Counted from the stretch's first letter, positions 556 to 43,746 are shown. The stretch is 44,277 nucleotides of DNA from Polaromonas sp. (GCA_043738155.1 JAYSZH010000032.1:1-44277), one strand, 5' to 3'. Notes: generated from the letters alone by a model not told the origin. Made by a program: numbers and translations.

Positions 556-630
556 AGCGGTTTTTAAACCCTAAATATGACGTTAGCCGGCGTATTTATT
601 AACTAAGTAGCTATTAAAAATATAGCAATA
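556..630 (-). repeat. Dispersed repeat copy 1 (reverse orientation), in the fabH-fabD intergenic region
   Basis: The reverse complement of 574..629 is TTGCTATATTTTTAATAGCTACTTAGTTAATAAATACGCCGGCTAACGTCATATTT. The core AATAAATACGCCGGCTA is exact (complement of 585..601). Confidence 0.9.
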
Positions 631-644
631 TTAGAAAACAATCA

Positions 645-1664
645 TCAAAACTCAAGCAGTGCAGAACCCCAAGTAAATCCGCCACCAACGGCCTCTAACA
701 TCAGCGTTTGACCTTTTTTGACTTGCCCTGAGCGCACAGCGGCGTCCAGCGCCAGTGGAATCGATGCTGCGGATGTGTTGCCATGTTGATCGACAGTGAC
801 AACCACCTTTTCCATGGGCAATTTGAGTTTTTTCGCCGTGCTGGTCATGATGCGGATATTGGCTTGGTGCGGAATCAGCCAGTCAATATCGGCTTCGGTT
901 TTACCGGCTTTGGCCAGCGTGGCGCGGGCGGTATCGGCCAAAACGCCAACGGCGAGTTTGAACACAGCTTGCCCGTCCATCTGCAAAAACGCAGAGCCTT
1001 CCACGGCGCCGCCACCCACATTGCCAGGCACGCACAAAATGCCCACGTGTTTGCCGTCGGCGTGCAAATCGGTTGCCAAAATGCCCGGTGTGTCGGACGC
1101 CTCTAAGACGACAGCGCCAGCGCCGTCGCCAAACAACACACAGGTGGTGCGGTCTTTGAAGTCCAAAATACGAGAAAAGGTCTCTGCACCAATAACGATG
1201 GCTTTGTTTGCCGCGCCAGATTGAACCATCGCGTTGGCGACCGACAGCGCATAGACAAAACCGGTGCAAACCGCCTGGATGTCAAACGCCGCGCAGCCAG
1301 CGATGCCCAGCTTGTTTTGCACAATGCAGGCGGTTGACGGGAAAACCATGTCTGGCGTGGAGGTGGCGACGATGATCAAATCAATGTCACTGGCCTGCAG
1401 ACCCGCCGCTTGCATGGCGCTTTTAGCGGCAGCAACGGCGAGTTCACTGGTCAAAACGCCTTGTTCTGAAAAATGCCGTGCGCGAATACCGGTGCGTTCA
1501 ACGATCCAGTCGTCGCTGGTTTCTACGCCTGTGGCTGCTAATTGGGTGACCAAATCAGCGTTGGTCACGCGTTTGGGCGGCAAAAAGCTACCTGTGCCAG
1601 TGATGCGAGCAAAGCGCGCTGGTTTGTTTGGCTGACTATTTGTCTGAGAGGGCTGAGTCGTCAA
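645..1664 (-). CDS. fabH: 3-oxoacyl-ACP synthase III (KAS III)
   Basis: 339-aa ORF with [10 protein letters not shown], the active-site Cys context [22 protein letters not shown] and [12 protein letters not shown]. It sits between plsX and fabD. Confidence 0.95.
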
Positions 1665-1776
1665 AAGATTCTGGGCAATAGATTTGCCAAATGTTGTCTA
1701 ATTAGCTGAGTTTAACAGCGCTTTTAGAGAGGCCTAACTAAGTCGCAGTGTAAGCAGCAGTGGGCGAGACTTAGGG

Positions 1777-2805
1777 CTAGGCTGCTGTTTGGCTACGGTT
1801 TAACAACGGGGCAGCATGCGCGATACGGGCTTTGACGCGGTCAACCAAATCATGCTTGGCCGCTTCATACGCGCGGCTGAGGGCATTTTCAAACGCCATC
1901 ACGTCCGCAGAACCATGGCTTTTGAACACCAAACCGCGTAACCCGAGCAGCGCAGCGCCATTGTGGCGTCTGTGGTCAAAGCGAAATTTAAACGCTTTTA
2001 GAACCGGATAAGCGCAGATAGCAGCCATTCTGGTAAAAATATTGCGAGAAAACTCTGCCTTTAGAAAGCTGCCAAACATAGAGGCAGCACCTTCAGTTGT
2101 CTTCAAAGCGACGTTGCCGACAAAGCCGTCGCACACCACAATATCGACCGTGCCTTTGAAAATATCGTTGCCTTCTACATTGCCGTAGAAATTTAAATCA
2201 CCAGCTGCAGCGGCGGCACGTAGCAATTCACCCGCTTGTTTGATGACTTCGCTGCCTTTGATGTCTTCTTCACCAATATTCAACAAACCAACCGTAGGGT
2301 TGTCGTTATTTCGCAAAACCGACACCAAAGCCGATCCCATGACTGCAAATTGCAGCAAATGCTCTGCTGTGCAGTCCACATTGGCCCCCAAGTCGAGCAC
2401 CATGGTGGCATCGCCTTTGGCGTTGGGCACCAAGCCTGAAATGGCGGGGCGGTCAATGCCGTCTAGTGTTTTGAGAACAAAGCGGGAAATAGCCATCAAC
2501 GCACCCGTATTTCCAGCAGAAACGGCGGCTTGCGCTGTGCCGTCTTTGACTTGGTTGATGGCGACGCGCATGGAAGAGTCTTTTTTCTTGCGCAGTGCGA
2601 TTTCCAGCGGATCGTCCATGCCGACAACCTCGCTGGCCGGCACAATCGTGGCACGCACATGCGAAAAACCCGCCAGTGCAGCGGGTAGGCCGACCATCAA
2701 GAGTTCGGCATCTTCGTGTTTATCGAGAAACTGGCGGCAGGCCGCCAAAGTAACGATGGGACCGTGGTCACCACCCATGCAGTCAACAGCTAATTTAACC
2801 ATCAC
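1777..2805 (-). CDS. plsX: Phosphate acyltransferase PlsX
   Basis: 342-aa ORF with the [15 protein letters not shown]-terminus and the GFVGNVALK motif. It follows the conserved rpmF-plsX-fabH order. Confidence 0.95.
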
Positions 2806-2872
2806 GCGAGCGTAATCATTTAAAAATTAGCTCACCCGACCGCTATTAACCAACGTCAACTGAAGCAGGAAT

Positions 2873-3064: not shown

Positions 3065-3188
3065 GATGTGGCTCCTAAACTGTAAATACTAACGATGAAT
3101 ATTAAAAATGTGCCACATGGATGTGACTCTAGCTGCACACTTTAAGCACAGCGAAGCCCACGATTATAGCGCATTCCTAGCGAAATTG

Positions 3189-3812
3189 CTACTTTTTACC
3201 CCCTACCTTGCCTTTTAAAGAGGCCAATACCGCGAATGGGTTGGGTTTGCCTGCCCCGACAGCTTCGGCATCGCCTTCAAAATCAGCATCAGACGCAGAC
3301 ATTTTTGGCGTCACAGGGCAAACATCGTGCAACGGCACTTGCGGCAAGGCCATCAAAAGCTCATCCTCAATCAGCTCAGACAAGTTAAATTCACGGCTGA
3401 TGGCCAGCAAATCTTCATCGCATTCGTCATCTTCGGCTTCTGCAGTCGCCTCATCCGCCACAAATCGGTAAGAGCGATCGACTTCTAAAAGCGTGGAAAC
3501 CTCGCCCAGGCAACGCTGGCAGGTTTGTGGCAAATGCGTTTGGGCGGTCAAATGCAACCAAACCCGAGGCTTAACCTTGGCAAGTTCGCCCGCGCTTTCA
3601 ACCAGCTCACCATCCGCCCGCCAAACAACACTCTCTGACGGGGTTAAATTATCCTCTAGCCGGCACGATTCCTGCCTTAAGCGCTCATATTTTAATAGCG
3701 AATCTTGTCCTTTCAGGTAGCCATTCACCTGCGCCAAACCCGCCACATCGAGGCGGTCTGCACGGAAATTCAAGCTCAAATCTTTCTTTGATGCATTCAT
3801 ACTGTCACTCAC
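3189..3812 (-). CDS. yceD: YceD/DUF177 family protein (large-subunit ribosome maturation factor)
   Basis: 207-aa acidic ORF with a CQRCL Cys pair, immediately upstream of rpmF in the classical arrangement. The start could instead be the ATG four codons downstream (MNASKK). Confidence 0.85.
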   Translation of the reverse strand: MSDSMNASKKDLSLNFRADRLDVAGLAQVNGYLKGQDSLLKYERLRQESCRLEDNLTPSESVVWRADGELVESAGELAKVKPRVWLHLTAQTHLPQTCQRCLGEVSTLLEVDRSYRFVADEATAEAEDDECDEDLLAISREFNLSELIEDELLMALPQVPLHDVCPVTPKMSASDADFEGDAEAVGAGKPNPFAVLASLKGKVGGKK

Positions 3813-7208: not shown

Positions 7209-8333
7209 TTAAGCAAACACGCCAGCCGTGTTTTGCATGCGGTTGGATACCTCACCCAACTGGTGCAAGGTGTCGCCAAATGTCATCTCTAGCTGCGTCA
7301 AGTGCTTGAAGTAATGGCTGACAATGTACTCGTCCGTCACACCAATACCGCCGTGTAGTTGCACAGCTTGCTGGCCCACAAAACGCATGGAATTGCCCAA
7401 TTGGTACTTAGCGCGTGCCATCGCAGCGCGGCGTTCTGCTGCGGGGGCATTGAGTTTCAGCGCTGCGTAATAGCTCATGGAGCGCGCCAATTCCAGCTGC
7501 ATCTTCACATCGGCCATGCGGTGGCGCAGCGCTTGGAAGCTGCTGATAACCACACCAAACTGCTTTCGGGTGTTCATGTACTCGGCGGTGATGGCGACGG
7601 TTTTGTCCATAGCGCCCACAGCTTCGGCACAAGTTGCGGCGATTCCGATGTCCACGCCATGCTCCAAAGCCGTTAAACCGTCCAAGGTGACCAACTGCGC
7701 TGGCGCATTTGTCAATCTCAATTCCGCAGCACGGCCACCGTTTTGTGTGCCATAGCCAGTAGTTGTGACACCGGCCGCTGTGCGCTCCACTAAAAACATC
7801 GCCATCTTGCCATCTAGCATCGCTGGAACCAAAAATGCATCTGCTTTATCACCCACAGGCACTATGCTTTTTATAGCTGATAAAGCATATTTATCGCCGG
7901 CTACAGCCATTTTTGATGCCGTAGAAGCACATAGATCCAAGTTATACCGCGCTGCACGCTCTTGGTAAGCCAGTACAACCAACGCCTCACCTGCTGCAAT
8001 TTTTGGCAACCAATCCGCTTTGATAGCTGCCGACGCATAGCCTGACAACAAGCCACTGGCAATCAATGTTTGCGCAAATGGCTCAAGCACGATGCCCCGC
8101 CCCAGTTCCTCCATCACCACCATGCCTTCTACAGGCCCCATGCCCAGACCGCCATCTTCTTCTGCGATGTACAACCCGCCAAGACCCAATTCGGCGATTT
8201 CATCGAATGCTTCTTTTGAAAAACCACCGCTATTTTCAATACTACGGCGGCGCTCAAAAGTGTAGGCTTTGTCTACCCATTTGCGGACCGCATCTCGCAA
8301 TTGTTCTTGGTCGTCTGTGAAATCGAAATTCAT
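7209..8333 (-). CDS. Acyl-CoA dehydrogenase family protein (downstream member of a tandem pair)
   Basis: 374-aa ORF with ACAD-like N-terminal (MNFDFTDDQEQLRDAVRKW), middle and C-terminal (QLHGGIGVTDEY) regions. Confidence 0.85.
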   Translation of the reverse strand: MNFDFTDDQEQLRDAVRKWVDKAYTFERRRSIENSGGFSKEAFDEIAELGLGGLYIAEEDGGLGMGPVEGMVVMEELGRGIVLEPFAQTLIASGLLSGYASAAIKADWLPKIAAGEALVVLAYQERAARYNLDLCASTASKMAVAGDKYALSAIKSIVPVGDKADAFLVPAMLDGKMAMFLVERTAAGVTTTGYGTQNGGRAAELRLTNAPAQLVTLDGLTALEHGVDIGIAATCAEAVGAMDKTVAITAEYMNTRKQFGVVISSFQALRHRMADVKMQLELARSMSYYAALKLNAPAAERRAAMARAKYQLGNSMRFVGQQAVQLHGGIGVTDEYIVSHYFKHLTQLEMTFGDTLHQLGEVSNRMQNTAGVFA

Positions 8334-9649: not shown

Positions 9650-10387
9650 TCATGGCTGAGACAGACCCAACTCTTTGCTCAGGTTTTCAACAATCTGCCG
9701 CAAATGTGCGACTTCATGCTCCAAGGCGCTGATACGCTGGTGAATCACCGATCCCTCGTTCGTAGCCAACTCTTGCGCCTCATTCTCGGTCGCCAACAAC
9801 GCCAAATCGACCGGACCGCACATCAAGTGCGTCCAACGCTGCTCGCGCGTTCCTGGGGCACGGGGCAGTTTTTGCACCAGCGGCCCGCCTTTCTCCGAGG
9901 ATCGGTCTTGCAGTTCTTCTAAAAACCCCTCTACGGATGAAATATCAGCAAATTTATACCAGCGCTCTGAATTGATGCGCAGCTCGCCTGCTGTTTGCGG
10001 GCCACGCAACATCAGCAAACCCAAAATAACGGCAGATTGCTCAGGCACGCCCACAGCGCGCTGAAAATTATGCTCAAAGCGCGTACTTCTGCTGCCGCTG
10101 ACCTCCCGAACGAGGGGTTGTCCAATAGAATTTGCTATATTTTTCATAGCTGTTAAGGCATTAAATACGTCGGCTTCGGTCAATTCCATGCTAGGAAAAC
10201 GGCTGCTTTTTTGATTGCAACCTAAAAGCAAAGAATTCAGCGTCAGTGGGTAGCTGTCGGGCACAGTGCGGGCTTTTTCCATCAAGGTGCCCAAGACGCG
10301 GGCTTGAATGGTGGTTAAATCTGGTAAATTTTTGGTGACTGTGTGTATGTCTATTTGTGCACCTGTAGCGTCAATGATGTTTTCCAA
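9650..10387 (-). CDS. YceH/DUF480 family protein
   Basis: 245-aa [38 protein letters not shown] parallels the E. coli YceH N-terminus ([35 protein letters not shown]). Confidence 0.85.
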
Positions 10388-11396: not shown

Positions 11397-12272
11397 ATGT
11401 ATCCATCAAATGCTACCCTCGCAACATCAGCACTTGTCCAAGCGCGACCAGCCGTTTCAAGCAAAACCAAAACCGAAGAAGCACTGCCCTTCACGCTCAA
11501 AATCGTGCGCACGCAGGCTGAATTGAACAAAGCAGTATTGATTCGCCAAGCCGCCTACGACCGCCATTTGCCTGACTTTGCCAAATCTTTGGTGAAACCC
11601 GAAGCGGCAGATTTTGAAAAAGGCACGGTCGTGCTGTTGGCTGAGTCGAAAGAAGATGGCTCGCCTGTGGGCACCATGCGGATTCAAACCAATGCTTACA
11701 AACCGCTGTGCTTGGAGCAATCCATCAACTTACCCCAATGGCTGAAAGAGCTGCCGATGGCGGAAGCGACACGCTTGGGTGTGACCAATCAAGTGGGCGG
11801 CCGCTTGGTGACCACGGCCTTGTTCAAAGCTTTCTACATGTATTGCCAGCAAATTGGTGTGGAATGGATGGTGATTGCGGGTCGCGCACCGGTGGATCGC
11901 ATGTACCAGCGCATGCTGTTTGAAGATGTTGTGCCTGGCCAGGGCTTTGTGCCGCTGGCGCATGCCAACAATTTACCGCACCGCGTGATGTCGTTCAACG
12001 TGAAAACCGCGTTTGAACGCTGGTCTGCTGTGAATCACCCCCTCCTTAACTTCGCAGCACTGACGCACCACCCCGACATCACCTTGGATATGCCACGCAA
12101 ACCACTGTCCATGCCTATCGAGATGCCGTTGATGGCTGCCGCCACGTCTACGATGGTTGTTGCGCCTGCGATTTTGCCGATTCAAACCCTACAAACAGTT
12201 CAAGGCGCAGAGCGACGCTTGCCAGCGATCAATCCTGCCAGCCCAGCGGCAGCGAACCACTACGCGATGTAA
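11397..12272 (+). CDS. GNAT-fold N-acyl amino acid synthase-like protein (FeeM/NasY-like, LuxI-related), putative
   Basis: 291-aa ORF. Its pattern is LKIVRTQAELNKAVLIRQAAYDRH ... VVLLAESKEDGSPVGTMRIQ ... MAEATRLGV ... LFKAFYMYCQQIGVEWMVIAGRAPVDRMYQRMLFEDV. From memory this matches the autoinducer-synthase-like acyltransferase fold. The last ~60 aa are low-complexity Pro/Ala/Met-rich. Confidence 0.5.
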   Translation: MYPSNATLATSALVQARPAVSSKTKTEEALPFTLKIVRTQAELNKAVLIRQAAYDRHLPDFAKSLVKPEAADFEKGTVVLLAESKEDGSPVGTMRIQTNAYKPLCLEQSINLPQWLKELPMAEATRLGVTNQVGGRLVTTALFKAFYMYCQQIGVEWMVIAGRAPVDRMYQRMLFEDVVPGQGFVPLAHANNLPHRVMSFNVKTAFERWSAVNHPLLNFAALTHHPDITLDMPRKPLSMPIEMPLMAAATSTMVVAPAILPIQTLQTVQGAERRLPAINPASPAAANHYAM

Positions 12273-12301: not shown

Positions 12302-12385
12302 GCTATTTTTGCTATTTTTGCTATATTTTTTATAGCTAATTAGGCAATAAATACGCCGGCTATAGGTCTATTTTCTGCCTCTAAA
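12302..12385 (+). repeat. Dispersed repeat copy 2, preceded by a GCTATTTTT x3 micro-tandem
   Basis: 12318..12373 reads TTGCTATATTTTTTATAGCTAATTAGGCAATAAATACGCCGGCTATAGGTCTATTT. The core is exact at 12346..12362. It lies between convergent gene ends. Confidence 0.9.
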
Positions 12386-12402: not shown

Positions 12403-12669
12403 TCACTTCACCTCACCCAAATAAGTGAACCTTGGTTGTAAAACGCCGTCAATGACAACTGTTTCGTTGAACATGGCCGCTGGTCGCACCCACAGGCCGT
12501 GCTCGCCATACAGGGCGCGGTACAGCGTCATCGGTTGCAGGTCCTCGGAATGGCGCACTGTGTCGATAACCTCGTATTCGCCGCCCTTGTAATGGCGGTA
12601 AAGACCCGGCTTGGTCGTAATAATTGGGGGCAAATAGTCTGGTAGATGGTCAGTGTCAGCATGCGTCAT
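12403..12669 (-). CDS. DUF1653 domain protein
   Basis: 88-aa ORF with YRHYKGGEYEVI...MTLYRALYGEHGLWVRP, the characteristic DUF1653 pattern. Confidence 0.8.
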   Translation of the reverse strand: MTHADTDHLPDYLPPIITTKPGLYRHYKGGEYEVIDTVRHSEDLQPMTLYRALYGEHGLWVRPAAMFNETVVIDGVLQPRFTYLGEVK

Positions 12670-14036: not shown

Positions 14037-14164
14037 ATTTTAGATAAATTTAAATGTTTTTAATGTAATTTCAAGTATTTTTAGCCTGACTTGGCATACA
14101 TTTCATTCTTGGTTATCGGTTTAAAAGTCATTACCCGTTATTGCAGCAAAATTTAGGAATTAAG

Positions 14165-15696: not shown

Positions 15697-18621
15697 TTAC
15701 GCCAATCTTGTTAATTGATCTTGTAGTTTCAGCAACGTAGCGGTATTGTCAGCAACCCGTTTGCGCTCCAACTCAATCACCGCTGGTGGCGCTTTGGCGA
15801 CGAAGGCTTCGTTGCTGAGTTTGCCGTTCACGCGGGCGATTTCGCCTTGCAGGCGCGTCACTTCTTTACCAATACGCAGTTTCTCGGCAGCAGCGTCAAT
15901 TTCCATGTGCAGGCACATGCGCAAATCACCCACCACAGACACAGGTGAAGCTTGCGCTGCAGATTGCCAAGTGGTTTCATCGTCAAACACTTTGACTTCA
16001 CTGAGTTTGGCAAGTGATTTCAACACCGGCGCAACATCGCGCATGAATGCCGCTTCAACTGCGTTAGCCGGCAGGGCAAACATCGGCAGCTTGGTCGATG
16101 GCGGCACGTTCATCTCACTGCGCAAGGTACGGCAACTATCGACCAAGCCTTTAAGTTTGGCGACGTGCGCCTCGGCAGCAGTATCTATACGATTTGGCTG
16201 GCTCACAGGGTACGCAGCAATACTGACACTTTCACCCGCTCTTCCAGCAACAGGTGCAACTTTTTGCCACAACTCTTCGGTAATGAACGGAATCACAGGG
16301 TGCGCCAAGCGTTGAATCGTCTCCAGCGTGCGAATCAAAGTACGGCGTGTGGCGCGTTGCTGTGATTCGTCACCAGTCTGGATTTGCACTTTGGCGATCT
16401 CCAAATACCAATCGCAAAACTCGTCCCATACAAACTGGTAAATGCTGTTGGCGACGTTATCCAAACGGTAATCTTCAAAACCTTTGGCAACGTCAGCCTC
16501 AACCCGCTGCAGAGCCGAGACAATCCAACGGTCGGCTTGGCTGAAGTTCAGATACCCGTGCGCAGAACCGCCCACTTCGCATTCGGCTTTGGTGTGCTCA
16601 CGCAAACCACAATCTTGTCCTTCGCAATTCATCAATACAAAGCGGGTGGCGTTCCACAGCTTGTTGCAGAAGTTGCGGTAGCCCTCGCAGCGTTTGCTGT
16701 CAAAGCTGATGTTCCGACCCAGCGATGCCAACGAGGCAAAGGTAAAACGTAACGCATCTGCGCCAAAGGCTGGAATACCATCCGGAAACTCTTTTTCAGT
16801 GTTTTTACGAACCGTAGGCGCGGTTTCGGGTTTGCGCAGACCTGTAGTGCGTTTGTCGAGTAACGGCGCCAAGGTGATACCGTCGATCAAATCGACCGGA
16901 TCCAGCACATTGCCTTCCGACTTGCTCATCTTCTTGCCCTGCGCATCACGCACCAGGCCGTGGATGTAGACATGCTTGAAAGGCACTTTGCCCGTGAAAT
17001 GCTTGGTCATCATGATCATGCGGGCAACCCAGAAGAAGATGATGTCGTAGCCGGTGACCAGCACGCTGGATGGCAGATACAAGTCCATGTCTTCGGTCTG
17101 CTCTGGCCAGCCCATGGTGCTGAATGGCACCAGCGCGGATGAATACCAGGTATCCAGCACGTCCTCATCCCGGCTGAGTGTCTTACCCGGTGCTTGCGCT
17201 TGCGCCTCGGCTTCATCTCTGGCCACATAGACTTTGCCGTCTTCGTCATACCAGGCTGGGATTTGATGACCCCACCACAATTGGCGCGAGATGCACCAAT
17301 CTTGGATATTTTTCATCCACTGGTCATAGGTGTTGACCCACTGTTCAGGGACGAATTTCACTTCGCCAGACGCTACTGCATCAATAGCACCTTGGGCAAT
17401 AGATACACCGTCTACAGCATTATTTTCAGGTGTTTTTGTCATCGCCACGAACCACTGATCCGTCAGCATCGGTTCAATCACTTGGCCAGTACGGGTGCAA
17501 ATCGGCACCATGTTTTTATGCGGCACAGCTTTTTGCAGGAAACCTTGCTCCTCCAAATCTTTTAAAACCGCTTTGCGGCAATCGTAGCGGTCTAGGCCTT
17601 GGTAGGCAACAGGGCCGTTTTCGTTGATCTTGGCATCCAGTGTGAAAATGGTGATCAGCGGCAGGTTGTGGCGCTGGCTACAGGCGTAGTCGTTAAAGTC
17701 ATGCGCACCGGTGATTTTGACGCACCCGCTGCCGAATTCACGGTCCACAAAGTCGTCAGCAATCACCGGGATTTTGCGGTCACACAAGGGCAAATCAACA
17801 AATTTACCCACCAAATGTTTGTAGCGCTCGTCTTCTGGGTGGACGCATAGCGCACCGTCGGCCAACATGGTCTCAGGTCGCGTGGTGGCGATGTGCAAGC
17901 CGCGAACGGTTGTGCCATCGCCTAAAGTTTGCGGACCGTCGCTGAACGGGTACTCGATGTGCCACATGAAGCTGTTACGCTCTTCGTTTTCAACTTCCAG
18001 GTCACTCACCGCCGATTTCAGCACCGGATCCCAGTTCACCAGGCGTTTGCCACGGTAAATCAAACCTTGCTCATACAAGCGGACAAAGGTTTCGGTCACG
18101 GTTTTGGACAACTTCGTATCCATCGTGAAGTATTCACGGCTCCAGTCCACACTCGCACCCATGCGGCGCATTTGGGTGGTGATGGTGTTGCCGCTTTGCT
18201 CTTTCCATTCCCACACTTTGGACACAAAGTTTTTGCGCGACTCAAAAGGCGTCGCGCCCATGTCGTGGCGACTGATGCCCTGCGCCTGCAGTTGACGCTC
18301 CACAACCACTTGGGTGGCAATACCCGCATGGTCCGTACCGGGAATCCAAGCGGTATTGAATCCGCTCATACGGTGGTAACGGGTCAGCGAGTCCATGATG
18401 GTCTGGTTGAAGGCATGGCCCATGTGCAGCGTGCCCGTCACATTGGGCGGCGGCAGCTGGATGGCAAAAGCGGGTGCCCCCTCTTTGGCCTGCTGTGTAC
18501 CGCGAAAACCCGCATCCGCGTAATGCCGCTTCTCCCACTCTGGCCCCCACTGAGCTTCAATAGCTGCAGGTTCGAACGATTTGGAAAGGGATTGAAGGCC
18601 AGGTTGCAAAATGTCGGTCAT
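15697..18621 (-). CDS. valS: Valine--tRNA ligase
   Basis: 974-aa ORF with [12 protein letters not shown] (HIGH motif), KMSKS, and a C-terminal coiled-coil. Confidence 0.97.
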
Positions 18622-20954: not shown

Positions 20955-20987
20955 TTTTCATAAAAAATTACTGATCTATTTGTAATT

Positions 20988-21050
20988 TTGCTATATTTTT
21001 AATAGCTAATTAAGCAATAAATACGCCGGCTAGATGTCGATTTTAGTCTT
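20988..21050 (+). repeat. Dispersed repeat copy 3
   Basis: 20988..21043 reads TTGCTATATTTTTAATAGCTAATTAAGCAATAAATACGCCGGCTAGATGTCGATTT. The core is exact at 21016..21032. It lies between the convergent cyclase and oxidoreductase ends. Confidence 0.9.
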
Positions 21051-21073
21051 GATAATCAGTTATTATTTATAAC

Positions 21074-31752: not shown

Positions 31753-34512
31753 ATGTCGAACTTACTTAGGTTTGCCCATTATTCACGGTTCTTTCAGCGC
31801 ATTGACAGGCGTTACACGGATTATTTAGCCGAACTAGCGCCAGGTGAGCCGCAGCGCGCTGCGATGCAAAGTACCTTTGATGCCCTGCGACAGCAAGGCC
31901 TAGATACCAGCGCGGCGTTGCGCATTTTGCGGCAATTGGTCATGCACAGGCTCATCCAATTGGATTGCGAGCAGCATGCCGCCCTGCGCGTGGTTACCCA
32001 TGCGGTGACTGATTTGGCAGAATTGGCCCTTGAAATAGCTTTAAAAACCGCTTACGAAGAGCTTGATGCTTTGCACGGACAGCCAGTCAACGCGCAGATG
32101 TGGGTTGTTGGCATGGGCAAGCTGGGTGCGCGTGAGCTCAATGTTTCAAGCGATATTGACTTGATCTACGTGTACGACCAGGACGGTGAAACGATTGGCA
32201 ACACTGAGGGTCGCAACAAAATCTCGCACCATGAGTATTTTGCCAAAGCAGTCAAAATCGTCTACGACTTGGTGGGTGCAACCACAGAGCATGGCTTCGT
32301 CTTTCGGGTCGATTTAGCGCTGCGTCCGCATGGCAATTCTGGGCCTGCGGCAATTTCTTTGTCTGGGTTAGAGCAATATTTGCAAGTTCAAGGTCGTGAG
32401 TGGGAGCGTTTTGCGTGGCTAAAAAGCCGAGTTGTTGCACCGCAAAGCAGTATTCGTCACGATTCCGGCAACAGCTCCGCCAAAGCGTTACGCGATGTTG
32501 TCTTGCCATTTGTATTCAGAAAATACCTGGATTACAACGTTTTTGAGTCGTTGCGCACGCTGCACCGCCAGATTCGTCAAGAATCTGCCCGCCGCAGCGC
32601 TGGCCGGCCTGAGCGGGCGAATGATGTCAAACTCTCGCGTGGCGGTATCCGCGAGATTGAATTTACCGTGCAACTGCTGCAAGTGGTGCGCGGCGGCCAA
32701 TACCCTGAACTGCGCAGACGCCCCACGTTGGACGCCCTGCAGCGCGTTGCTCACGCCGGCTTGATGCCGCAAACCACCGCTGATGCCTTGTCCAAAGCCT
32801 ATGAATTTTTACGCCGTGTGGAGCACCGCATTCAATACCTAGACGACCAGCAAACCCACGCCATGCCCACGCAAGACGCTGATTTGCAGTGGATTGCGCA
32901 AAGCATGGGCTACAAAGAGTGCGACAGCGACAGCTGCGCGTTTTTGACCGATTTAGATGCCCACCGCGAACTGGTGGCAAATGAGTTTGACAAACTTTTA
33001 GGCGGTTTTCAGCAAACCAGCTCAAATTTAAAAGACTGCGGCACGCAGGAATGCAAGGTTTGCCCCTCCCCTTCAAGTTCATCTTCAAGTTCATCAACAC
33101 CGTCCTTAGCGTCAACCTCTGCTGAAAACCACCCAAATGCAGCCTTTGACAAACGCGTTACCGAGCTTGCCGAGCACCCGCGCGTGCTGAGTCTGCGCGA
33201 AGACGCCCGAGGTCGCCTGATGCGCCTTGTAGAACGCACCAACACCTGGCTGCAAAGCGGTCGCGTCACCGAGCTTGCCGCCCTGCGTAGTGCTGATTTT
33301 TTAGAGCCACTCCTACGTCGCGAAAGCTACCTGGCATTGCTGTGGGAGCGCCCCGTGGTGCACGAACGCCTGCTCAAACTCCTAGGCAGCGCCCGCTGGC
33401 CAGCCAAGTATTTGCTGCAACACCCCGGCGTGATGGACGAACTGGCGGGTGACGCGTGGTTGACCGAGCGTTTTAACCCGCCAGAATTTGAAGCCGAACT
33501 GGCGCTACGTATCAAATCGTTGAAATCCACGGGCGAAGACGATGTAGAAACCCTGCTAAACCTGCTGCGCCGTGCCCACCACGCAGAGCTGTTTCGCACC
33601 CTGGCACGTGATATTGAAGGTCAACTCACTGTTGAGCAAGTGGCTGATGACCTGAGCGCGCTGGCAGACACCGTGCTGCGCGTCACCGTGGCTTGGTGTT
33701 GGGAGCGGCACAAAAACAAACACTTGGATTACCCCCAAATCGCCATCATCGGCTATGGCAAATTGGGTGGCAAAGAGCTGGGCTACGGCAGCGACTTGGA
33801 CATCGTCTTCATTTACGAAGACATCGATGAAAATGCTGGTGAAATATACAGCTCATTTGTGCGCAAACTCATCACCTGGTTGGACACCAAGACCTCAGAA
33901 GGCGATTTGTTCGAAATCGACACCGCCCTGCGCCCCAACGGCAATTCCGGCCTGTTGGTGACTAGCTTTGCGGCATTCTCAGACTACCAAGAAAAGCGCG
34001 GCAGCAACACCGCATGGACTTGGGAACACCAAGCCATGACCCGCGCCCGATTCGTCGCGGGCTACGAACCCTTACGCGCCAAGTTCGACCAAGTCCGCCA
34101 AAACGTCATCTCTGCCCCGCGCGATTTACCCGCTTTGAAGCAAGAAATCATCGCCATGCGCGACAAAGTCCGCGCTGCGCATGTTGTCAAAGCTGATTTA
34201 TTCGACGTGAAACACAGCCCCGGCGGCATGCTAGACGCCGAATTCGCTGTGCAATACCTCGTTTTAGCCCACAGCGCCGTCCACCCCGAACTGCAACCCA
34301 ACCTAGGCAACATCGCCCTGATGCAACGCGCTGAAGCCGTCGGCTTGCTCCCAGCCGGCATAGGCGAAGCCGCAGCCACCGCCTACCGCAACCTGCGCCA
34401 CGCCCAACACGTAGCCCGCCTGGACGAAGCGCCTACGCAAGTGTCGGGTGCTGAAATGCAGGTGGAAATGGACGCGATGTTAGAGCTTTGGGATGCGGTT
34501 TTTGCTATATAA
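31753..34512 (+). CDS. glnE: Bifunctional glutamine synthetase adenylyltransferase/adenylyl-removing enzyme
   Basis: 919-aa ORF with two nucleotidyltransferase modules (GMGKLGARELNVSSDIDLIYVY and GYGKLGGKELGYGSDLDIVFIY), joined by a Ser-rich linker. Confidence 0.95.
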   Translation: MSNLLRFAHYSRFFQRIDRRYTDYLAELAPGEPQRAAMQSTFDALRQQGLDTSAALRILRQLVMHRLIQLDCEQHAALRVVTHAVTDLAELALEIALKTAYEELDALHGQPVNAQMWVVGMGKLGARELNVSSDIDLIYVYDQDGETIGNTEGRNKISHHEYFAKAVKIVYDLVGATTEHGFVFRVDLALRPHGNSGPAAISLSGLEQYLQVQGREWERFAWLKSRVVAPQSSIRHDSGNSSAKALRDVVLPFVFRKYLDYNVFESLRTLHRQIRQESARRSAGRPERANDVKLSRGGIREIEFTVQLLQVVRGGQYPELRRRPTLDALQRVAHAGLMPQTTADALSKAYEFLRRVEHRIQYLDDQQTHAMPTQDADLQWIAQSMGYKECDSDSCAFLTDLDAHRELVANEFDKLLGGFQQTSSNLKDCGTQECKVCPSPSSSSSSSSTPSLASTSAENHPNAAFDKRVTELAEHPRVLSLREDARGRLMRLVERTNTWLQSGRVTELAALRSADFLEPLLRRESYLALLWERPVVHERLLKLLGSARWPAKYLLQHPGVMDELAGDAWLTERFNPPEFEAELALRIKSLKSTGEDDVETLLNLLRRAHHAELFRTLARDIEGQLTVEQVADDLSALADTVLRVTVAWCWERHKNKHLDYPQIAIIGYGKLGGKELGYGSDLDIVFIYEDIDENAGEIYSSFVRKLITWLDTKTSEGDLFEIDTALRPNGNSGLLVTSFAAFSDYQEKRGSNTAWTWEHQAMTRARFVAGYEPLRAKFDQVRQNVISAPRDLPALKQEIIAMRDKVRAAHVVKADLFDVKHSPGGMLDAEFAVQYLVLAHSAVHPELQPNLGNIALMQRAEAVGLLPAGIGEAAATAYRNLRHAQHVARLDEAPTQVSGAEMQVEMDAMLELWDAVFAI

Positions 34513-34568
34513 TTTATAGCTAATAAAGCAATAAATACGCCGGCTAGAGGCATATTTACCCCTCTAAA
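34501..34568 (+). repeat. Dispersed repeat copy 4, overlapping the glnE stop codon
   Basis: 34502..34557 reads TTGCTATATAATTTATAGCTAATAAAGCAATAAATACGCCGGCTAGAGGCATATTT. The core is exact at 34530..34546. It is followed by the hairpin TAGAGG-N10-CCTCTA. Confidence 0.9.
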
Positions 34569-34577
34569 CTCAATATT

Positions 34578-37864: not shown

Positions 37865-37886
37865 ATTAATTTTAAAATAGTTAAAA

Positions 37887-37945
37887 TTACTATACTTTTA
37901 ATAGCTATTTAGGCAATAAATACGCTGGCTAGAGGCATATTTTAA
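37887..37945 (+). repeat. Dispersed repeat copy 5
   Basis: 37887..37942 reads TTACTATACTTTTAATAGCTATTTAGGCAATAAATACGCTGGCTAGAGGCATATTT. The core at 37915..37931 has one mismatch (C to T). It lies between the convergent yaeQ and sugar-binding-protein ends. Confidence 0.88.
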
Positions 37946-37953
37946 TCAGAAAA

Positions 37954-39015
37954 TTACTGGATCTGCTCCGCCCTGTAAAACCCCGAGCTAACCAGTACTT
38001 GCTTGATATTGGCAGCGTCAACCAATACGGGTTTTAGCAAGAATGATGGCACGACTTTGACCCCGTTGTTGTACGTTTTGTTGTCATTCACTGTGGGCGC
38101 TTTGCCTTGAATCAAGGCTTCTGCCATTTGGGCGGTGACGCGGGCCAGTTCGCGGGTGTCTTTGAAAATGGTGGACGACTGCTGGCCGCGCAGCACCGAT
38201 TTGGTGGCGGGTATATCTGCGTCTTGACCTGTAATCACTGGCATGGGGTTGCCAGCTTGCCCATAGCCCGCTTTGGCAAAACCAGTGATCAACTCGGCGG
38301 CAATGCCGTCATTGGGGGCCAGCACAGCATCCAAGCGCAGCTTTGAATAATACTTTGGCAGCAAAACACTCAAACGCGCTTTGGCGATGGCGCCGTTCCA
38401 GCCTTTGGTGGAGACGTTGTTCATGCCCTCTTGGCCAGATTCAATGACCAGTTGTTTTTTATCGATATACGGCTTGAGCACAGACATCGCACCGTCGTAA
38501 AAGAAAAAGGCGTTGTTATCGTCTGGCGAGCCGGCAAACAACTCAATGCGAAACGGGCCTTTGCCGGCGGCGAGCTCCAAGCGTTTCACGATGTCCGCGC
38601 CTTGTTTCACGCCGACATCAAAATTGTCAAACGTGGCGTAGTAGTCCACATTGGCACTGTCACGAATCAAGCGGTCATAGGATATGACCTTGATTTTCTT
38701 CTCGCCGGCTTTTTTCAAAACCTCGGTCAACTTTTTGCCGTCGACAGCGGCAATAACGAGCACTTTCGCGCCTTTTTTGATCATGCCTTCAATTTGCGCA
38801 ATTTGCATGTCTGCACCACCGCTGGCGTATTGCAAATCAGACGCCAGGTTGACCTTGTTCAGCTCCCGCATGATGGACAAGCCGTCGTTCACCCAGCGCA
38901 TGTTGCTGAATTCTGGCATGGACACACCGACTGCGATTTGCTCTTGCGCCAAGCTAGTGCTGCAAAAAGCAATGCAAGCGACTGAAGCCACCATTTTTAA
39001 TTTTGAAAATACCAT
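37954..39015 (-). CDS. Periplasmic sugar-binding protein (ChvE-like, multiple-monosaccharide ABC substrate-binding family), orphan
   Basis: 353-aa ORF with a signal peptide (MVASVACIAFCSTSLAQE) and a type I periplasmic-binding fold (VISYDRLI, NDGIAAELI, ITGQDAD). No permease or ATPase gene is adjacent. Confidence 0.8.
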   Translation of the reverse strand: MVFSKLKMVASVACIAFCSTSLAQEQIAVGVSMPEFSNMRWVNDGLSIMRELNKVNLASDLQYASGGADMQIAQIEGMIKKGAKVLVIAAVDGKKLTEVLKKAGEKKIKVISYDRLIRDSANVDYYATFDNFDVGVKQGADIVKRLELAAGKGPFRIELFAGSPDDNNAFFFYDGAMSVLKPYIDKKQLVIESGQEGMNNVSTKGWNGAIAKARLSVLLPKYYSKLRLDAVLAPNDGIAAELITGFAKAGYGQAGNPMPVITGQDADIPATKSVLRGQQSSTIFKDTRELARVTAQMAEALIQGKAPTVNDNKTYNNGVKVVPSFLLKPVLVDAANIKQVLVSSGFYRAEQIQ

Positions 39016-39175
39016 GTTTGCCTTTTTTTGTCGTGGTTCAATAGTTTTGCACTTTGTTCAATCAATGAACTAAGTGTTAACTAATTGTCTACAAACAAAC
39101 AAAGCAAAAAATCAGGACATACCCTTGCGTTTACAAATTAACGGGTCGGTTACGCTCTGCCGCCCGCTAATAAGT

Positions 39176-40093
39176 TCATTTTCTACCCACGCAAGGCTCA
39201 AACCCGCCTGATCCGCCACCCAGGGCGTAACCGATACCAAAACCGCCCGCTTTGGTCGAGCCTGATACGCCACCGCCAACCTTGATGGACAAGCGCTCTG
39301 TGATGCGCGTTGCCAAGCCGATGGCAAAGCCGTTCTCGCTGCCCGATTTGGCAACCCCCGCGCCTACATAAACCAAGCCGCATTCGCCTGTCGTTGGCAG
39401 CGGCATAAAGGCCGTTGCCATGGCGATAGCTGTAAGTTGAGCTGCTTTGCGGTCAACATCGGCCAGCTGTGACAAGGTGGCTGAATTCGGCGCTGAATCA
39501 CCCTTGTCTCCTTTGTCGCCCTTGTCCCCCTTCAAACCATCAGCACCATTGGTTCCGTTTGCGCCAGTGCCACCATTGGCTCCGTTTGCGCCAGTGCCAC
39601 CGTTGGCTCCGTTCACCCCAGCCACACCCTGAATTCCTTGAGCACCAGTAGCTCCGTTCGTTCCATTGGTTCCGTTCGTTCCATTGGTTCCGTTCGTTCC
39701 GCTGGTTCCGTTCGTTCCGCTGGTTCCTGCTGCACCTTGAGCGCCAGTTGCTCCCGTCGCTCCAGTTGCTCCGGTTGCACCTCGCGGCCCTGTTGCACCT
39801 GCTGGACCCATCGGCCCTGTTGCACCTGTTGGTCCTGTTGGACCCATCGGCCCTGTTGCACCTGTTGGTCCTGCAGATCCTGCAGGTCCTGTGGCTCCTG
39901 TATCACCAGTATGCCCACGTGTCCCTGGAGTGCCCGGAGGGCCGTCATCATTGCCACTGGCTGAGGCTGCTGTTGCGTGCAGCACCCCCATCACCAGCAC
40001 GGCACTAGGTGCTAGATAAGCGCCTGACAGCATCAAAGACGCCAGTAATGCGCTGTGGATACGATTTGTCGGTTTCTGAATGCGATGTGTCAT
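39176..40093 (-). CDS. Secreted collagen-like (Gly-X-Y) repeat protein with a YadA-like C-terminal anchor candidate
   Basis: The start ATG (complement of 40091..40093) is preceded by AGGAG at 7-nt spacing. The signal peptide is [45 protein letters not shown]. About 50 uninterrupted GXY triplets run from [13 protein letters not shown] to [12 protein letters not shown]. The ~100-aa tail is [70 protein letters not shown]. Confidence 0.85.
39494..39943 (-). repeat. In-frame 9-, 18- and 27-bp tandem repeat tracts encoding the Gly-X-Y region
   Basis: Examples are GGTTCCGTTCGTTCCATT / GGTTCCGTTCGTTCCGCT units (about 39655..39725), a duplicated 27-mer CCCATCGGCCCTGTTGCACCTGTTGGT (about 39800..39875), a 27-mer duplication around 39565..39620, and (GDK)x3 at 39497..39530. 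Confidence 0.85.
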
Positions 40094-40516
40094 TGCAGCT
40101 CTCCTCGGAGGTATTGAATTTGTAACATTTCTAGCTTCAAAACCGCAGAAAAAGAAGATTTGTGTACTTTTTAAGTCACATACTTCCAAAATTAATGCTG
40201 TTTGTACTTATTTTGTTGACATTTGTCACAATGAGCAATACCCATTTTTTTGAGCATTAAAAGTGTCAAATCCACCCAAAATTAGCTACAGAAAAGATAG
40301 CGAAACGGGTTTTCTCACATTGGTGAATGTGTAGCTTTGTAAGTATTTAAGTAATTTTTAAGAGATGATTGTTAGGCGGTCACCCTATATGTTTCAATTT
40401 GTATTAAATGAAACAAAAAGAAACTGAACGTTCAAAATCTGAATCCGAAACAAATGCCGCCAGGCTTCATAAAAGTACTGACACTTTGAGATCAACAAAT
40501 GATGAAAAACGATAAA

Positions 40517-40565
40517 AGCTATCAATAATATAGCAATATCTATAATGAATACTTTGGCTAGAGAT
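40517..40565 (+). repeat. Degenerate dispersed repeat copy 8
   Basis: AGCTATCAATAATATAGCAATATCTATAATGAATACTTTGGCTAGAG. The core-like AATGAATACTTTGGCTA at 40544..40560 has 4 mismatches out of 17. It sits just beyond the stop of the 40595 gene. Confidence 0.5.
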
Positions 40566-41142: not shown

Positions 41143-41496
41143 ATGAAACTTCTACTCAGATGGCTACTTCTAGCCGTCGCTCTTCTTTTTGTGGCTTATG
41201 TGTACGACGGCGTGTCGGTGCAAAGCTTCCAGTCTGCACTGCTTGCCGCATTTGTGATTGGCTTGCTCAACACCTTTGTGAAGCCAATTTTGGTGATTTT
41301 GACGCTGCCCGTCACTGTCATCACCGTTGGTTTGTTCCTCTTCGTCATCAACGCCTTGATGTTTTGGGGCGCTGCGTACCTGTTGGATGGTTTCAACGTG
41401 ACTGGTTTTACCGCCGCGCTGGTGGGTTCGTTGATTTATTCGATATTTAGTTATTTGATCAACACAGCTGTGGACAGCTTGTTTTCCAAAAAATAG
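41143..41496 (+). CDS. Phage-holin-family-IV/DUF360 type small membrane protein
   Basis: 117-aa ORF with 3-4 hydrophobic helices. NTFVKPILVILTLPVTVITVGLFLFVINALMF is typical of this family. Confidence 0.75.
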   Translation: MKLLLRWLLLAVALLFVAYVYDGVSVQSFQSALLAAFVIGLLNTFVKPILVILTLPVTVITVGLFLFVINALMFWGAAYLLDGFNVTGFTAALVGSLIYSIFSYLINTAVDSLFSKK

Positions 41497-41566
41497 CAAT
41501 GAACCAATGCATTTATAATAGCAATAGCAAACTAATCAATAAATACGCCGGCTAGAGCCTTATTTA
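41492..41566 (+). repeat. Dispersed repeat copy 6 (left arm rearranged), spanning both convergent stop codons
   Basis: 41510..41565 reads CATTTATAATAGCAATAGCAAACTAATCAATAAATACGCCGGCTAGAGCCTTATTT. The core is exact at 41538..41554. The holin-like TAG (41494..41496) lies in an AAATAGCAAT motif, and the peptidase TAA is the complement of 41560..41562. Confidence 0.8.
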
Positions 41567-43167
41567 GCAGCATCTTTTTCGTCTTTTATCTGCTGCCGCA
41601 GCAGCTCTTGCACCTGGCGGGTGCGCACATCGATGATGGACTCTTCCACATAGTCGCGCCCCGCTGAAGCTCCCCAGCTCCTGACCACATCTTGCGCAGC
41701 TTTAAAGCGGTCTATGGCGGCGGCGTAATCCAACAAAGCCACCTGCGCTTCAGCTTCAGCCCGTACGGCGCGTAAGTTTTGGCCAGTGGCTCGGTAAGCA
41801 TTACCTAAAAGCTGCCAAGCGGGTGCGTCAGTTGGGTTTTTAGCGACCCAGGTCTGCAGGTTTTGCGTGGCTTGGCTGGCTAATTTGGCATCTTTTGCGG
41901 AAATTTGCACCTGTGACTGGGCGAACAACTCAGGCCGACTCAAACGCTGGCCTGTCGTTTGGATGGGCAGCAGCGTGAGGGCGGCTTCTGGATTGTTAGC
42001 AGCCAAATAGAGCTCAATTTCTATTAATTTTGCAGCTTTAGAAACAATGGAATCGCTGGCTATAGAACTATTTAGCCTGTCCTTTTGAACAGTTGCACGA
42101 GCAAAATCACGCAGCTTGATATTCGACAAAATAGCGGCGTACAAACTGGCGACTTGGTGCGCTTTGCTCAAGTTCAGAAACCCAGCCGCTTGCGGCTCTG
42201 CCGCCCACTGGCGCAGAACATCGATGCCTGGATCGGCCAACACACGGGCGCGGGCGGACATCATGGCGTGTTGCAGACTAGGCTCGGTTTGCGGGGCAAA
42301 TTTGGCCATATGCTGCTGAATCAGCAAGCGCTGCTGCATGTCACCCATGCGTTCCGTCGTCATGGGGTGGCTGCGCAGGTAGGGGAAGTTGCCGCTGTCG
42401 CTGAGGCGGGCTGATTGCTGCAGCTTCTCGAACATGCCCACAAAGCCCTGCGGCGCGAAACCGGCAGGCTGCATCAGCCCCAGCCCGAGGCGATCCGCCT
42501 CTCGCTCCATATCACGCGAAAAGTTGAGCTGGCCTTGGATAGCCACGGCTTGTGAGCCGGCAACGACGGCATTCAGCGCATCGGGGTTGTTACGCGCCGC
42601 CACTGCGCCCAAAATCATCGCCGCAATCATCACCGGCGTTTGCCGCCCCTGCTGGGTGATAGAGCGCGAAATGTGCCGCTGGGTGACGTGGGTGAGCTCG
42701 TGTGCTAACACAGACGCCAGCTCATCCTGATTCGCCACCAGTCCAATCAGCCCCAAATGCACGCCAAAATAACCGCCTGGCAGTGCAAACGCGTTGACCG
42801 TGCGATCCCGCGCCAGCATGACGCGCCAAGCGAAACGTTCGTCCATTTCAGGCGTCAATTCGCCTTTGGCTCGGGCGGCTTTTAAGAGCGATTGCCAAAT
42901 GCCATCCACATACTCGTTGAGCAGCGGGTCGTCCAAATAGTCGGGATCGCGATAGATTTGCTTGGCAATCGCGTCGCCCATACGCCGCTCAGCGCCTAGG
43001 GACAAGTCGCCGTCCTCGCCTACGCCCAAGAGTGGGGTCATGCCAGCGCGTTGGGCTGTGGCAGCCTGCCCTAGCGATAAACTCGGGCTAGCTAAACCTA
43101 AAAACAGCACGGTAGCAATAGCAAGGCTGTGTTTTTGAAAATAGGGTTGTTTGAATATTGATTTCAC
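41560..43167 (-). CDS. M48-family Zn metalloprotease with a TPR-like C-terminal domain (BepA/YfgC-like)
   Basis: It has the [10 protein letters not shown] (HExxH) motif, a signal-like N-terminus ([31 protein letters not shown]) and TPR-like helices in the C-terminal half. I chose the GTG start at 43167. The ORF-track TTG start at 43206 would overlap the moaC start. Confidence 0.8.
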
Positions 43168-43185
43168 AGCCTTATGATAGCGTTC

Positions 43186-43746
43186 ATGAGTATTAATTCC
43201 CCACAAAACACGTCTGGTTTCAACCCCTCTGGCAACACGTCAGGATTAACCCATTTCGACGCCCAAGGCCAGGCCCACATGGTCGATGTAGCAGCCAAAG
43301 CCGCCACCCACCGCATCGCAGTCGCCCAAGGCCGTATCACCATGCTGCCCGCCACGTTCGCCCTGATTGAAGCTGGAACGACTAAAAAAGGCGATGTGCT
43401 GGGCATCGCGCGGATTGCCGGTATTCAAGGCGCGAAGAAAACCAGCGATTTGATCCCGCTGTGTCATCCTCTGGCGTTAACCAGAGTTGCTATTGATTTT
43501 ATAGCTGATGAGGCAATAAATACGCCGGCTAATGTCAAAAATGACACTCTAAGATCGATCATCTGTACCGCCACAGTAGAAACCGTCGGTCAAACCGGTG
43601 TAGAAATGGAAGCCCTGACCGCCGTGCAGGTCGCCCTGCTCACCATCTACGACATGTGCAAAGCCGTCGACCGTGGCATGACGATGACCGATGTGCGGGT
43701 GTTGGAGAAACATGGCGGCAAGTCGGGAAGTTATGTGAATCCGTAA
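43186..43746 (+). CDS. moaC: Cyclic pyranopterin monophosphate synthase accessory protein MoaC, carrying an in-frame repeat-derived insert
   Basis: [69 protein letters not shown] and GGKSG all parallel E. coli MoaC. The start is the ATG at 43186 or at 43174, in the same frame. Confidence 0.92.
43486..43552 (+). repeat. Dispersed repeat copy 7, inside the moaC reading frame
   Basis: 43487..43542 reads TTGCTATTGATTTTATAGCTGATGAGGCAATAAATACGCCGGCTAATGTCAAAAAT. The core is exact at 43515..43531. It translates in frame as [20 protein letters not shown]. Confidence 0.88.

Follow-up and report, generated by a model that had tools for sequence, protein, structure and literature searches.

What kind of element is the A+T-rich repeat that recurs, with a nearly invariant core, along 44,277 nucleotides (nt) of Polaromonas sp. 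DNA (GCA_043738155.1 JAYSZH010000032.1:1-44277, hereafter the window), and what keeps it there? An initial annotation had listed eight copies (c1 to c8) of a dispersed 56-nt sequence, and all eight were present where they had been placed. The core, AATAAATACGCCGGCTA, is exact at 584 (minus strand), 12346, 21016, 34530, 41538, and 43515, whereas c5, at 37915, departs from it at a single base; matches with at most one mismatch numbered seven in the window versus a mean of 0.08 in dinucleotide-preserving shuffles. Copy c8 (40517-40565) has four core mismatches, as annotated, and is on its own a weak profile match (6.5 bits, E 0.3). Repeat finding in the window recovered the same copies together with their flanks. 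The annotated length of 56 nt proved too short, with pairwise alignments of nonorthologous copies giving a repeated unit of ~75 bp.

A dispersed family and its ~75-bp unit

A profile built from 137 copies with an exact core and a recognizable left arm found 10 copies in the window at E ≤ 2e-5, a density of ~1 per 4.4 kb. These included seven of the eight annotated copies and three unlisted ones (7860-7931, 10128-10198, and 17370-17438), all on the plus strand and antisense within genes; besides the 10, there were the weak c8 and a relic in bepA (8.7 bits). When one genome per species was scanned, the exact core occurred at at least 114 loci, and full copies (E < 1e-8) were present in 110 of the 114 among the matches listed, which bears out the claim of a dispersed family. 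These 110 loci stem from ~27 assemblies, counted by accession prefix, that are metagenome-assembled genomes (MAGs); L numbers label the loci and the syntenic contigs below. Most of the assemblies bear the name Polaromonas and were recovered from glacier-fed streams and comparable waters, and a few are labeled Variovorax, Rhodoferax, Brachymonas, Burkholderiaceae, or 'Ca. Aalborgiella'. Four bare chance cores came from a Gammaproteobacteria MAG, an uncultured proteobacterium bin, a Bacteroides MAG, and Lachnotalea. One full copy lies on a 1,861-nt contig binned as 'Candidatus Kaiserbacteria' (L083, JAYSTK010000039.1), probably a mis-binned Polaromonas fragment.

Across 0.83 Mb, the profile matched 244 times at E ≤ 0.01 and 294 times at E ≤ 10, with a continuum of weak matches. 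Reversed sequences gave no match at E ≤ 10, codon-permuted genes (2.2 Mb) only one (E 4.4), and six synonymous recodings of 721 complete predicted genes no new match of at least 20 bits. These three nulls rule out that the weak coding matches are a coincidence of protein sequence or codon usage. The element was not matched in PLSDB plasmids or GenBank phages, and real copies were found in four IMG/VR viral-type contigs. Rfam gave no match at gathering scores and, at E ≤ 1, only an unrelated microRNA model elsewhere in the window. A literature search turned up neither the core sequence nor any description of such a repeat from Polaromonas, in keeping with the first impression that this is not a recognized named family. 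A passage of PMC10969869 cites Mattes 2008 for a MITE (miniature inverted-repeat transposable element) of the Polaromonas JS666 genome; the present repeat could conceivably be the same element. With this reservation, it is apparently undescribed so far.

Similarity between nonorthologous copies starts ~4 nt before TTGCTAT and ends 56 to 80 nt later (17,548 pairwise alignments), and the position matrix holds ~77 bits of information. Positions 6-10 and 18-22 form a dyad, (G/A)CTA(T/C) ... ATAGC, in which CTA (7-9) and TAGC (19-22) are 97 to 100% conserved. The 7-nt loop between its arms (11-17; GCTAT-N7-ATAGC) varies between copies and is nearly only A or T. A free 5-nt linker (23-27) and AGGC (28-31) lead to the core (32-48), which is 90 to 100% conserved at each position and is followed by N-A-G-S-C (49-53) and a W tract (55-59). 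A/T tracts at +7-11, +17-23, +28-32, and +38-41 after the core are spaced about one helical turn apart and should bend the DNA.

Read directly, the copies have the hairpin as annotated and, in each of the three frames, the annotated stop codons. As a stable structure, however, the hairpin did not hold up: the dyad symmetry is conserved, but folding z-scores of +1.4 to -1.6 are no better than those of shuffles. A hairpin of CTAGAGGC with downstream CCTCTAAA was also unsupported (mean z-score -0.36). The stretch GGCATATTTA is an imperfect mirror of the left half of the core (33-43 versus 51-61), and the two pair in 59% of cells, compared with 33 to 38% when the partner is slid. No compensatory changes accompany this pairing because the core never varies, and in 25 to 30% of copies AA replaces TT in the mirror positions, which breaks two stem pairs. 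Covariation between column pairs was absent over the whole unit. Correlated variation occurred only at neighboring A/T-tract positions. There, TT and AA replace each other block-wise, a hint of shape readout; as no distant positions are linked, the variation is star-like and defines no subfamilies. The unit has no terminal inverted repeats of at least 10 bp, its ends sharing only an A/T-rich pentamer (AATTT/AAATT), and its two subterminal dyads show no sequence relationship to each other.

Read on the reverse strand, the unit is TTGCCT-16 nt-TATAG(C/T), both in c5 (window 37889-37916, minus strand) and in the consensus. Where position 6 is A, as in 32% of copies, the sequence becomes TATAGT, giving a 9/12 sigma-70-like match directed out of the left arm.

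Gene ends and gene interiors

By longest open reading frame (ORF) call, 177 profile matches were intergenic and 67 (about a quarter) lay within ORFs. Spacers between convergent genes were occupied most often (47/98, 48%), followed by co-directional (81/350, 23%) and divergent ones (7/90, 8%; chi-square 42, p = 6e-10), in support of the preference for gene 3' ends noted initially. Median distances from stop codons were 17 and 8 nt. Some copies supply the stop codon itself, as for glnE (left arm of c4) and bepA (within c6), and the glnE end ...GTT TTT GCT ATA TAA, which lies within the left arm, is kept in all seven syntenic genomes. The annotated positions of c2 to c6 between convergent genes and of c1 between fabH and fabD agree with the gene annotation; c7 is not intergenic and sits in frame within moaC.

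Both orientations were equally frequent in co-directional spacers (42 versus 46). The plus-strand bias reported initially is true locally (9 of 10 copies in the window) and disappears elsewhere, with 106 plus and 111 minus copies overall in the window and loci. A replication-linked orientation was rejected, as over ~110 loci there was no tie to GC skew (Spearman rho 0.04) or to the gene-strand majority. Outside the window, neighboring copies were co-oriented 66 times versus 35, which reflects local arrays of copies. Two strong copies stand head to head, 42 nt apart, in L077 (6463-6668), the only REPIN-like doublet seen.

Real coding sequence held 57 profile matches of at least 20 bits. Sense copies used one main frame (...NNIA.QAINTPA..., 24/32), as did antisense copies (...AGVFIA..AI..IA, 18/25), and the actual DNA outscored each of 200 synonymous recodings in all 58 cases tested. 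Four intragenic copies lie in the window, in moaC, valS, a yceH-like gene, and an acyl-CoA dehydrogenase gene. The full copy c7 (43484..43560, plus strand, 55.5 bits) runs in sense and in frame through moaC, with a net gain of 11 amino acids (aa) relative to Escherichia coli MoaC and its left arm on the native strand after PLCHPL. It was present in 20 of 20 homologues sampled from the 120 best MoaC matches (79 to 96% identical to the window protein), so this copy predates the radiation of the clade. In valS (15697-18621, minus), a degenerate antisense copy (17370..17438, plus, 27.8 bits, where synonymous recoding tops out at 12.4) likewise accounts for 11 aa: its left arm lies on the native helix before FVPEQW, and its core side is an 11-aa insertion relative to T. 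thermophilus ValRS. A gain of 13 aa was seen in aroA of L056, with the left arm on the conserved SASYF(L/I)A.GAI motif. The yceH-like gene (9650-10387, minus), with a degenerate antisense copy at 10128..10198 (plus, 34.8 bits), has a net gain of 6 aa, seen as a six-residue gap against YceH structures.

Other copies change no length at all. An S-adenosylmethionine (SAM) methyltransferase in L023 and L106 has its copy on the GVD.S..AIE.A motif (41 to 49 bits), and the alignment of an adenosine deaminase (L046) is ungapped. In the window, the pimD-like acyl-CoA dehydrogenase gene (7209-8333, minus) carries a degenerate antisense copy (7860..7931, plus, 24.1 bits), and its product aligns without gaps across MAVAGDKYALSAIKSIV to solved acyl-CoA dehydrogenases; the DNA of this copy scored 24.0 bits versus at most 9.9 in 200 synonymous recodings. 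Such overlays in protein alignments with homologues of solved structure rule out a clean in-frame insertion in the style of Rickettsia palindromic elements (RPEs).

The decayed relic in bepA (42016..42088, plus, 8.7 bits) is orthologous to strong copies in L044, L119, and L128, and matches the consensus at 44 of 71 positions versus 53, 52, and 51 in relatives. All nine orthologues are equal in length, their consensus matches run from 53 down to 29 of 71, and the copy is weakest in the outgroup and in G+C-rich lineages. An old copy that has decayed, most rapidly where G+C is high, would give this pattern, and the idea that the bepA copy proves in-place gain was withdrawn on the strength of these orthologues. 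The tetratricopeptide repeat region of the product aligns poorly with E. coli BepA, which leaves room for an old insertion.

Between trpC and ung in L055 (1512-3281), a 589-aa ORF reads through an element copy (..YVAKQVINTPAIAKNAPKNE..) and fuses two neighboring genes. Its halves, judged from a reading of the sequence, resemble sterol-desaturase-type and YhhN-type genes.

Turnover, unequal conservation, and what could maintain the repeat

Within the first 114 loci, the search for empty sites gave only filled pairs; empty sites came from syntenic contigs fetched through MoaC homologues. The phylogeny of these syntenic genomes was built on two genes and may be confounded by allele exchange. The ASL/yaeQ site is filled in L117, L127, L129, and L130 (spacers of 116 to 238 nt with a common right-hand flank). 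The window, L119, and L128 have it empty, with a stop-TTT-ATG junction. The insertion in L117 measures 124 nt, of which only ~75 nt are the unit and ~45 nt lie outside it. The holin/bepA site, that of c6, is occupied in the window, L044, and L128; in L130 it is rearranged, and five other genomes have it empty. Neither site has a target-site duplication.

Orthologous copies were 94% identical in the core and stems. The 5-nt linker was 44% identical in orthologous pairs versus 42% in random pairs, and the loop 64% versus 48%. The comparison of core and linker is biased to detectable copies, and the glnE site, an unselected sample, has the same pattern: at most one core mismatch in eight of nine copies from seven genomes, with all linkers different. 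L129 (61% G+C) is the exception: each of its three copies is weak (31 to 38 bits), as if maintenance had been lost in this G+C-rich genome. The opposite behavior of core and linker within one unit implies position-specific constraint, or drive, acting in place. Neutral decay cannot produce the contrast, and homogenization by gene conversion was rejected as the main force, since a contiguous tract cannot keep core and stems yet randomize a 5-nt linker. A motif of 77 bits, far above the need for site specification, together with the insertion polymorphism points to descent by copying.

The genomes with this syntenic region span 49 to 61% G+C (L115, L127, and the window 49 to 51%). In L127 (5492-5729), short A/T-rich repeats beside the copy, which are variants of TACTTAAAA, expand the ASL/yaeQ spacer to 238 nt.

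We tentatively read the element, with a probability of about 0.42, as a clade-specific REP/BIME-like DNA module that is recognized by a protein and maintained by the host at gene ends. Orientation independence, the lack of covariation and of a stable fold, the block-wise A/T swaps, and the phased tracts argue for a double-stranded DNA signal read by a protein, not for RNA. A protein probably does read it, judging from a core that stays nearly unchanged while neighboring bases drift; binding, selection, and function are what we infer from the patterns above. Copies would arise by copying into the ends of transcription units, avoiding promoter-only spacers and often supplying the stop codon. Once established, they would be kept for long by position-specific constraint in lineages that still have the recognizing machinery, and the same pressure could let the motif persist or arise within genes where the protein is encodable in one of the two frames. 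As a guess at function, protein binding and bending at gene ends may serve topology, termination, or nucleoid organization, with recombination at or between copies changing local gene content as a side effect.

REP/BIME elements occur as hundreds of short noncoding copies at gene 3' ends, especially convergent ones. They are mosaics of a dyad and conserved extra motifs without inverted ends or duplications, and their orthologous copies are long retained with star-like variation round a master sequence (PMC2817692, PMC3116915, bioRxiv 10.1101/2021.07.10.451892). All of this applies to the present element, from the 3' ends and the missing inverted ends to orthologous retention and star-like variation. 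It differs from REP/BIME in its 5-bp, A+T-rich stem, where a stable G+C-rich palindrome of 20 to 40 nt would be expected, in its single copies as opposed to inverted doublets, and in the REP tag GTAG/CGTC, of which GTAG (position 49) occurs in only ~29% of copies. No RAYT (Y1 HUH transposase) gene was found among the ORFs scanned in the window and loci, which include no whole genome. RPEs are small repeats in frame within unrelated housekeeping genes, with a preferred frame and a tolerated peptide (PMC10969869). The element shares the in-frame position and the constant frame, whereas RPEs are ~150 bp long and add a full element-length peptide; the element adds 0 to 13 aa per footprint of 19 to 25 aa, lies partly on native conserved residues, is mostly intergenic, and belongs to another host clade. 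The resemblance to REP/BIME or RPE elements noted at first stands in broad terms. Lacking terminal inverted repeats as well as target duplications, the element does not belong with Correia or MITE elements. Its kind, interspersed repeats, is known, with REP/BIME the closest by placement and persistence.

If this reading is true, a whole clade of bacteria abundant in cold freshwater marks the ends of its transcription units every ~4 to 5 kb with a long, protein-read signal, retained from before the divergence of the species. The element shapes proteins through stop codons and C termini (glnE, bepA), gene fusion (L055), and imposed sequence (MoaC, ValS, AroA, and the methyltransferase), and it coincides with spots where accessory and defense genes are gained and lost. 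With core and linker behaving oppositely within 75 bp, it offers a tractable case of whether short bacterial repeats persist by selection, drive, or selfish copying. In practice, it marks the clade in metagenomes.

Several observations weigh against a host-maintained module. No binding protein or enzyme was identified from the window and the MAG loci, among which there is no complete genome. REP/BIME elements are strictly extragenic and have stable G+C-rich hairpins, and the element does neither: despite its preference for 3' ends and convergent spacers, it has the 57 coding matches described above. The overlays on native motifs with zero length change are unexplained by simple insertion and fit drive at least as well as selection. 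Co-oriented arrays bound single accessory genes, and arrangements of the form E-cargo-E (E, element copy) exist, which point to a more specific recombination role. Ascertainment favors intact cores, through the choice of exact-core loci, most of them 8-kb MAG tiles, and of orthologous pairs at E < 1e-6, and the gene calls at the loci are crude longest-ORF calls.

A more novel but doubtful possibility is that a sequence-specific system of biased transmission or recombination targets the motif and actively writes it across the genome, even within coding sequence. The motif might then be a long signal for uptake or self-recognition; alternatively, an integron-like cassette system without attC/IntI features might use it as its att site. 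Such a system, if true, would jointly explain the native-motif overlays, the position-specific conservation, and the co-oriented arrays round defense and toxin-antitoxin genes. Least explained of all are the overlays on native protein motifs, the main reason for keeping the more novel readings in play.

In a recombination (att-like) reading, which we hold to be rather unlikely, a site-specific recombinase would cross over at the dyad GCTAT-N7-ATAGC, with the core and bent flank as accessory sites. Gene modules, whether circular or linear, would become integrated at copies already in place and so leave co-oriented arrays separating accessory genes. Several sites look the part. The glnE/hldE site has one copy in most genomes, two direct tandem copies 14 nt apart in L127 (2436-2603; their loops are different, and each has one differing core base), and a copy, a TIR-domain gene, and a second copy in L128, both copies with the loop TTAATTT found in 3 of 159 copies scanned. 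The yaeQ/DUF3717 site has neither cargo nor copy in L129 (3-nt spacer) and a single copy without cargo in L117 and L119. Four genomes carry four different cargos there: a sugar-binding protein gene (L128), sugar-binding and collagen-repeat genes between c5 and the degenerate c8 (window), two small genes (L127), and a PIN/antitoxin pair (L130). In the window, the direct copies c5 and c8 flank 2.6 kb that is missing in L117, L119, and L129. Between trpC and ung, L079 (6153-6674) has E-379 nt-E without a gene and L055 has E-gene-E-gene-E. Elsewhere, single genes of toxin-antitoxin, AbiU2, Ymh, CAP12-TIR, and ORF6N types lie between close, co-oriented direct pairs, and the general co-orientation of neighbors (66 versus 35) also fits.

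However, most copies are single and stand among housekeeping genes, many are within genes, and cargo orientation is mixed (~14 opposite, 9 same). The second copy at yaeQ is missing or degenerate in three of the four cargo-bearing genomes, no recombinase gene was found in the window or among the ORFs checked, and the varying 7-nt dyad spacer would block exchange by a tyrosine recombinase. Convergent spacers, moreover, commonly host islet variation anyway. Integron attC sites, as in Vibrio VCR arrays, are comparable in being species-specific repeats of 60 to 120 bp that separate single accessory genes, of toxin-antitoxin and defense types, in co-oriented arrays. In attC sites, an imperfect long dyad ends in the inverse core RYYYAAC and the core GTTRRRY, and the arrays adjoin intI with cassettes uniformly oriented. 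The element lacks the R''/R' core sites and a long dyad, only 2% of copies have a G before TTAGGC, its cargo is of mixed orientation, and most of its copies lie among core genes; no intI or integrase gene was present among the ORFs checked.

Drive of the uptake-signal type is unlikely. Here, a machinery for DNA uptake or another kind of biased transmission would prefer DNA with the motif, and consensus-like variants would spread by recombination wherever tolerated. Uptake signals have a short core of 9 to 12 bp, occur about once per kb, and are equally frequent in both orientations. Like the USS/DUS of Haemophilus and Neisseria, the element combines an invariant core with helically phased A/T tracts, equal orientations overall, and a clade-wide consensus with star-like variation. 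It also lies both in terminator regions and in genes, there in two preferred frames (24/32 and 18/25), and some copies would have been gained without length change, as in the overlays on the SAM-methyltransferase motif, adenosine deaminase, and acyl-CoA dehydrogenase. Conservation that is position specific and in place, codon choice that beats any synonymous recoding (58/58), and the continuum of weak matches point the same way. On the other hand, 77 bits over >56 bp make it several times longer and richer in information than known uptake signals, and at ~1 per 4.4 kb it is 4 to 5 times sparser. Its copies are strongly concentrated in spacers, neighbors are locally co-oriented, true insertions exist (11 to 13 aa; 124 nt), and a literature search gave no link between uptake sequences and Comamonadaceae or Polaromonas. 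To our knowledge, an uptake signal here, if true, would be the first outside Pasteurellaceae and Neisseriaceae.

A selfish, nonautonomous transposable element, either a MITE or an IS200/IS605-type palindrome-associated transposable element, with its transposase elsewhere and copies in neutral decay, appears quite unlikely. High copy number, intergenic placement, and filled and empty orthologous sites would suit it, as would bona fide copies in the four viral-type contigs; two different subterminal dyads without inverted ends or duplications recall IS200/IS605 derivatives. Yet these dyads are unrelated in sequence, inverted ends of at least 10 bp and target duplications are missing, and the ASL/yaeQ insertion of 124 nt includes ~45 nt outside the unit. 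There is no orientation bias relative to GC skew, the core is kept while the linker is saturated, and intragenic copies overlie native sequence. A parent element was not found in 0.9 Mb, nor was a match in PLSDB or GenBank phages. Correia (CREE), MITE, and ERIC elements are similarly small, abundant, and gene adjacent, sometimes with stop codons or promoter-like hexamers (compare TTGCCT-16-TATAGT on the reverse strand of c5), but the element lacks terminal inverted repeats, a TA or other duplication, and a long hairpin, and it does not resemble them in sequence.

An RNA-level element (a terminator, 3' untranslated region stabilizer, or small RNA in the transcripts of flanking genes) is very improbable, for although copies follow close behind stop codons, a consensus scan flagged a terminator-like hairpin on the minus strand of c4, and the core pairs with positions 51-61 above the shifted background, they lie in both orientations relative to the upstream gene, show no compensatory changes and often two broken stem pairs, fold with the energies of shuffles, and have no relevant Rfam match.

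Copies and neighboring genes along the window

At 554..631 (minus, 58.4 bits, exact core), c1 lies between the fabH stop (645) and the fabD start, co-directional with the operon. A tentative, very weak relic was seen within yceD (3636..3701, minus; nhmmer 11.6 bits, E 0.0075 in a window-only search). The full copy c2 (12316..12385, plus, 56.9 bits) separates convergent genes identified through Pfam, a FeeM-like gene (11397-12272, plus) and a DUF1653 gene (12403-12669, minus). Convergent genes also flank the full copy c3 (20985..21059, plus, 54.4 bits), namely, a Cache-cyclase gene (18828-20954, plus) and an indolepyruvate oxidoreductase gene (21074-24688, minus), and the full copy c4 (34499..34577, plus, 61.5 bits) lies between glnE (plus) and the hldE-type adenylyltransferase gene (minus).

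After yaeQ, the full copy c5 (37884..37959, plus, 56.0 bits) is, by synteny, the left boundary of the 2.6-kb segment missing in relatives. The cargo between c5 and c8 (37954..40189, minus) consists of a gene for a ChvE-like sugar-binding protein and one for a collagen-repeat protein; L117, L119, and L129 are without it, and other genomes have other genes here. The right boundary is c8 (40515..40564, plus, 6.5 bits), a degenerate direct copy beside the 3' end of the DUF3717 gene. Its left arm is well kept, with a 23-nt stretch 91% identical to the arm of c1; its core matches at 13 of 17 bases, and its position supports accepting it as a copy. The last spacer copy, c6 (41514..41581, plus, 47.4 bits), has a rearranged left arm and lies between a holin-like gene (plus) and bepA (minus); it is absent here in five related genomes.

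The initial remark that no transposase is nearby was essentially right. The sole trace is in a fatty-acid desaturase ORF (14141-15379, plus), whose C-terminal residues 290-409 weakly match the ISL3 transposase family (25 bits, cutoff 23) and may be a domesticated or fused fragment. The moaC ORF has an apparent N-terminal extension of ~22 aa (43174-43240) that is found in some close homologues and missing in others. Within the 2.6-kb segment, the collagen triple-helix repeat gene (39176-40189, minus) contains DNA repeats with periods of 9 and 27 nt at 39544-39705.

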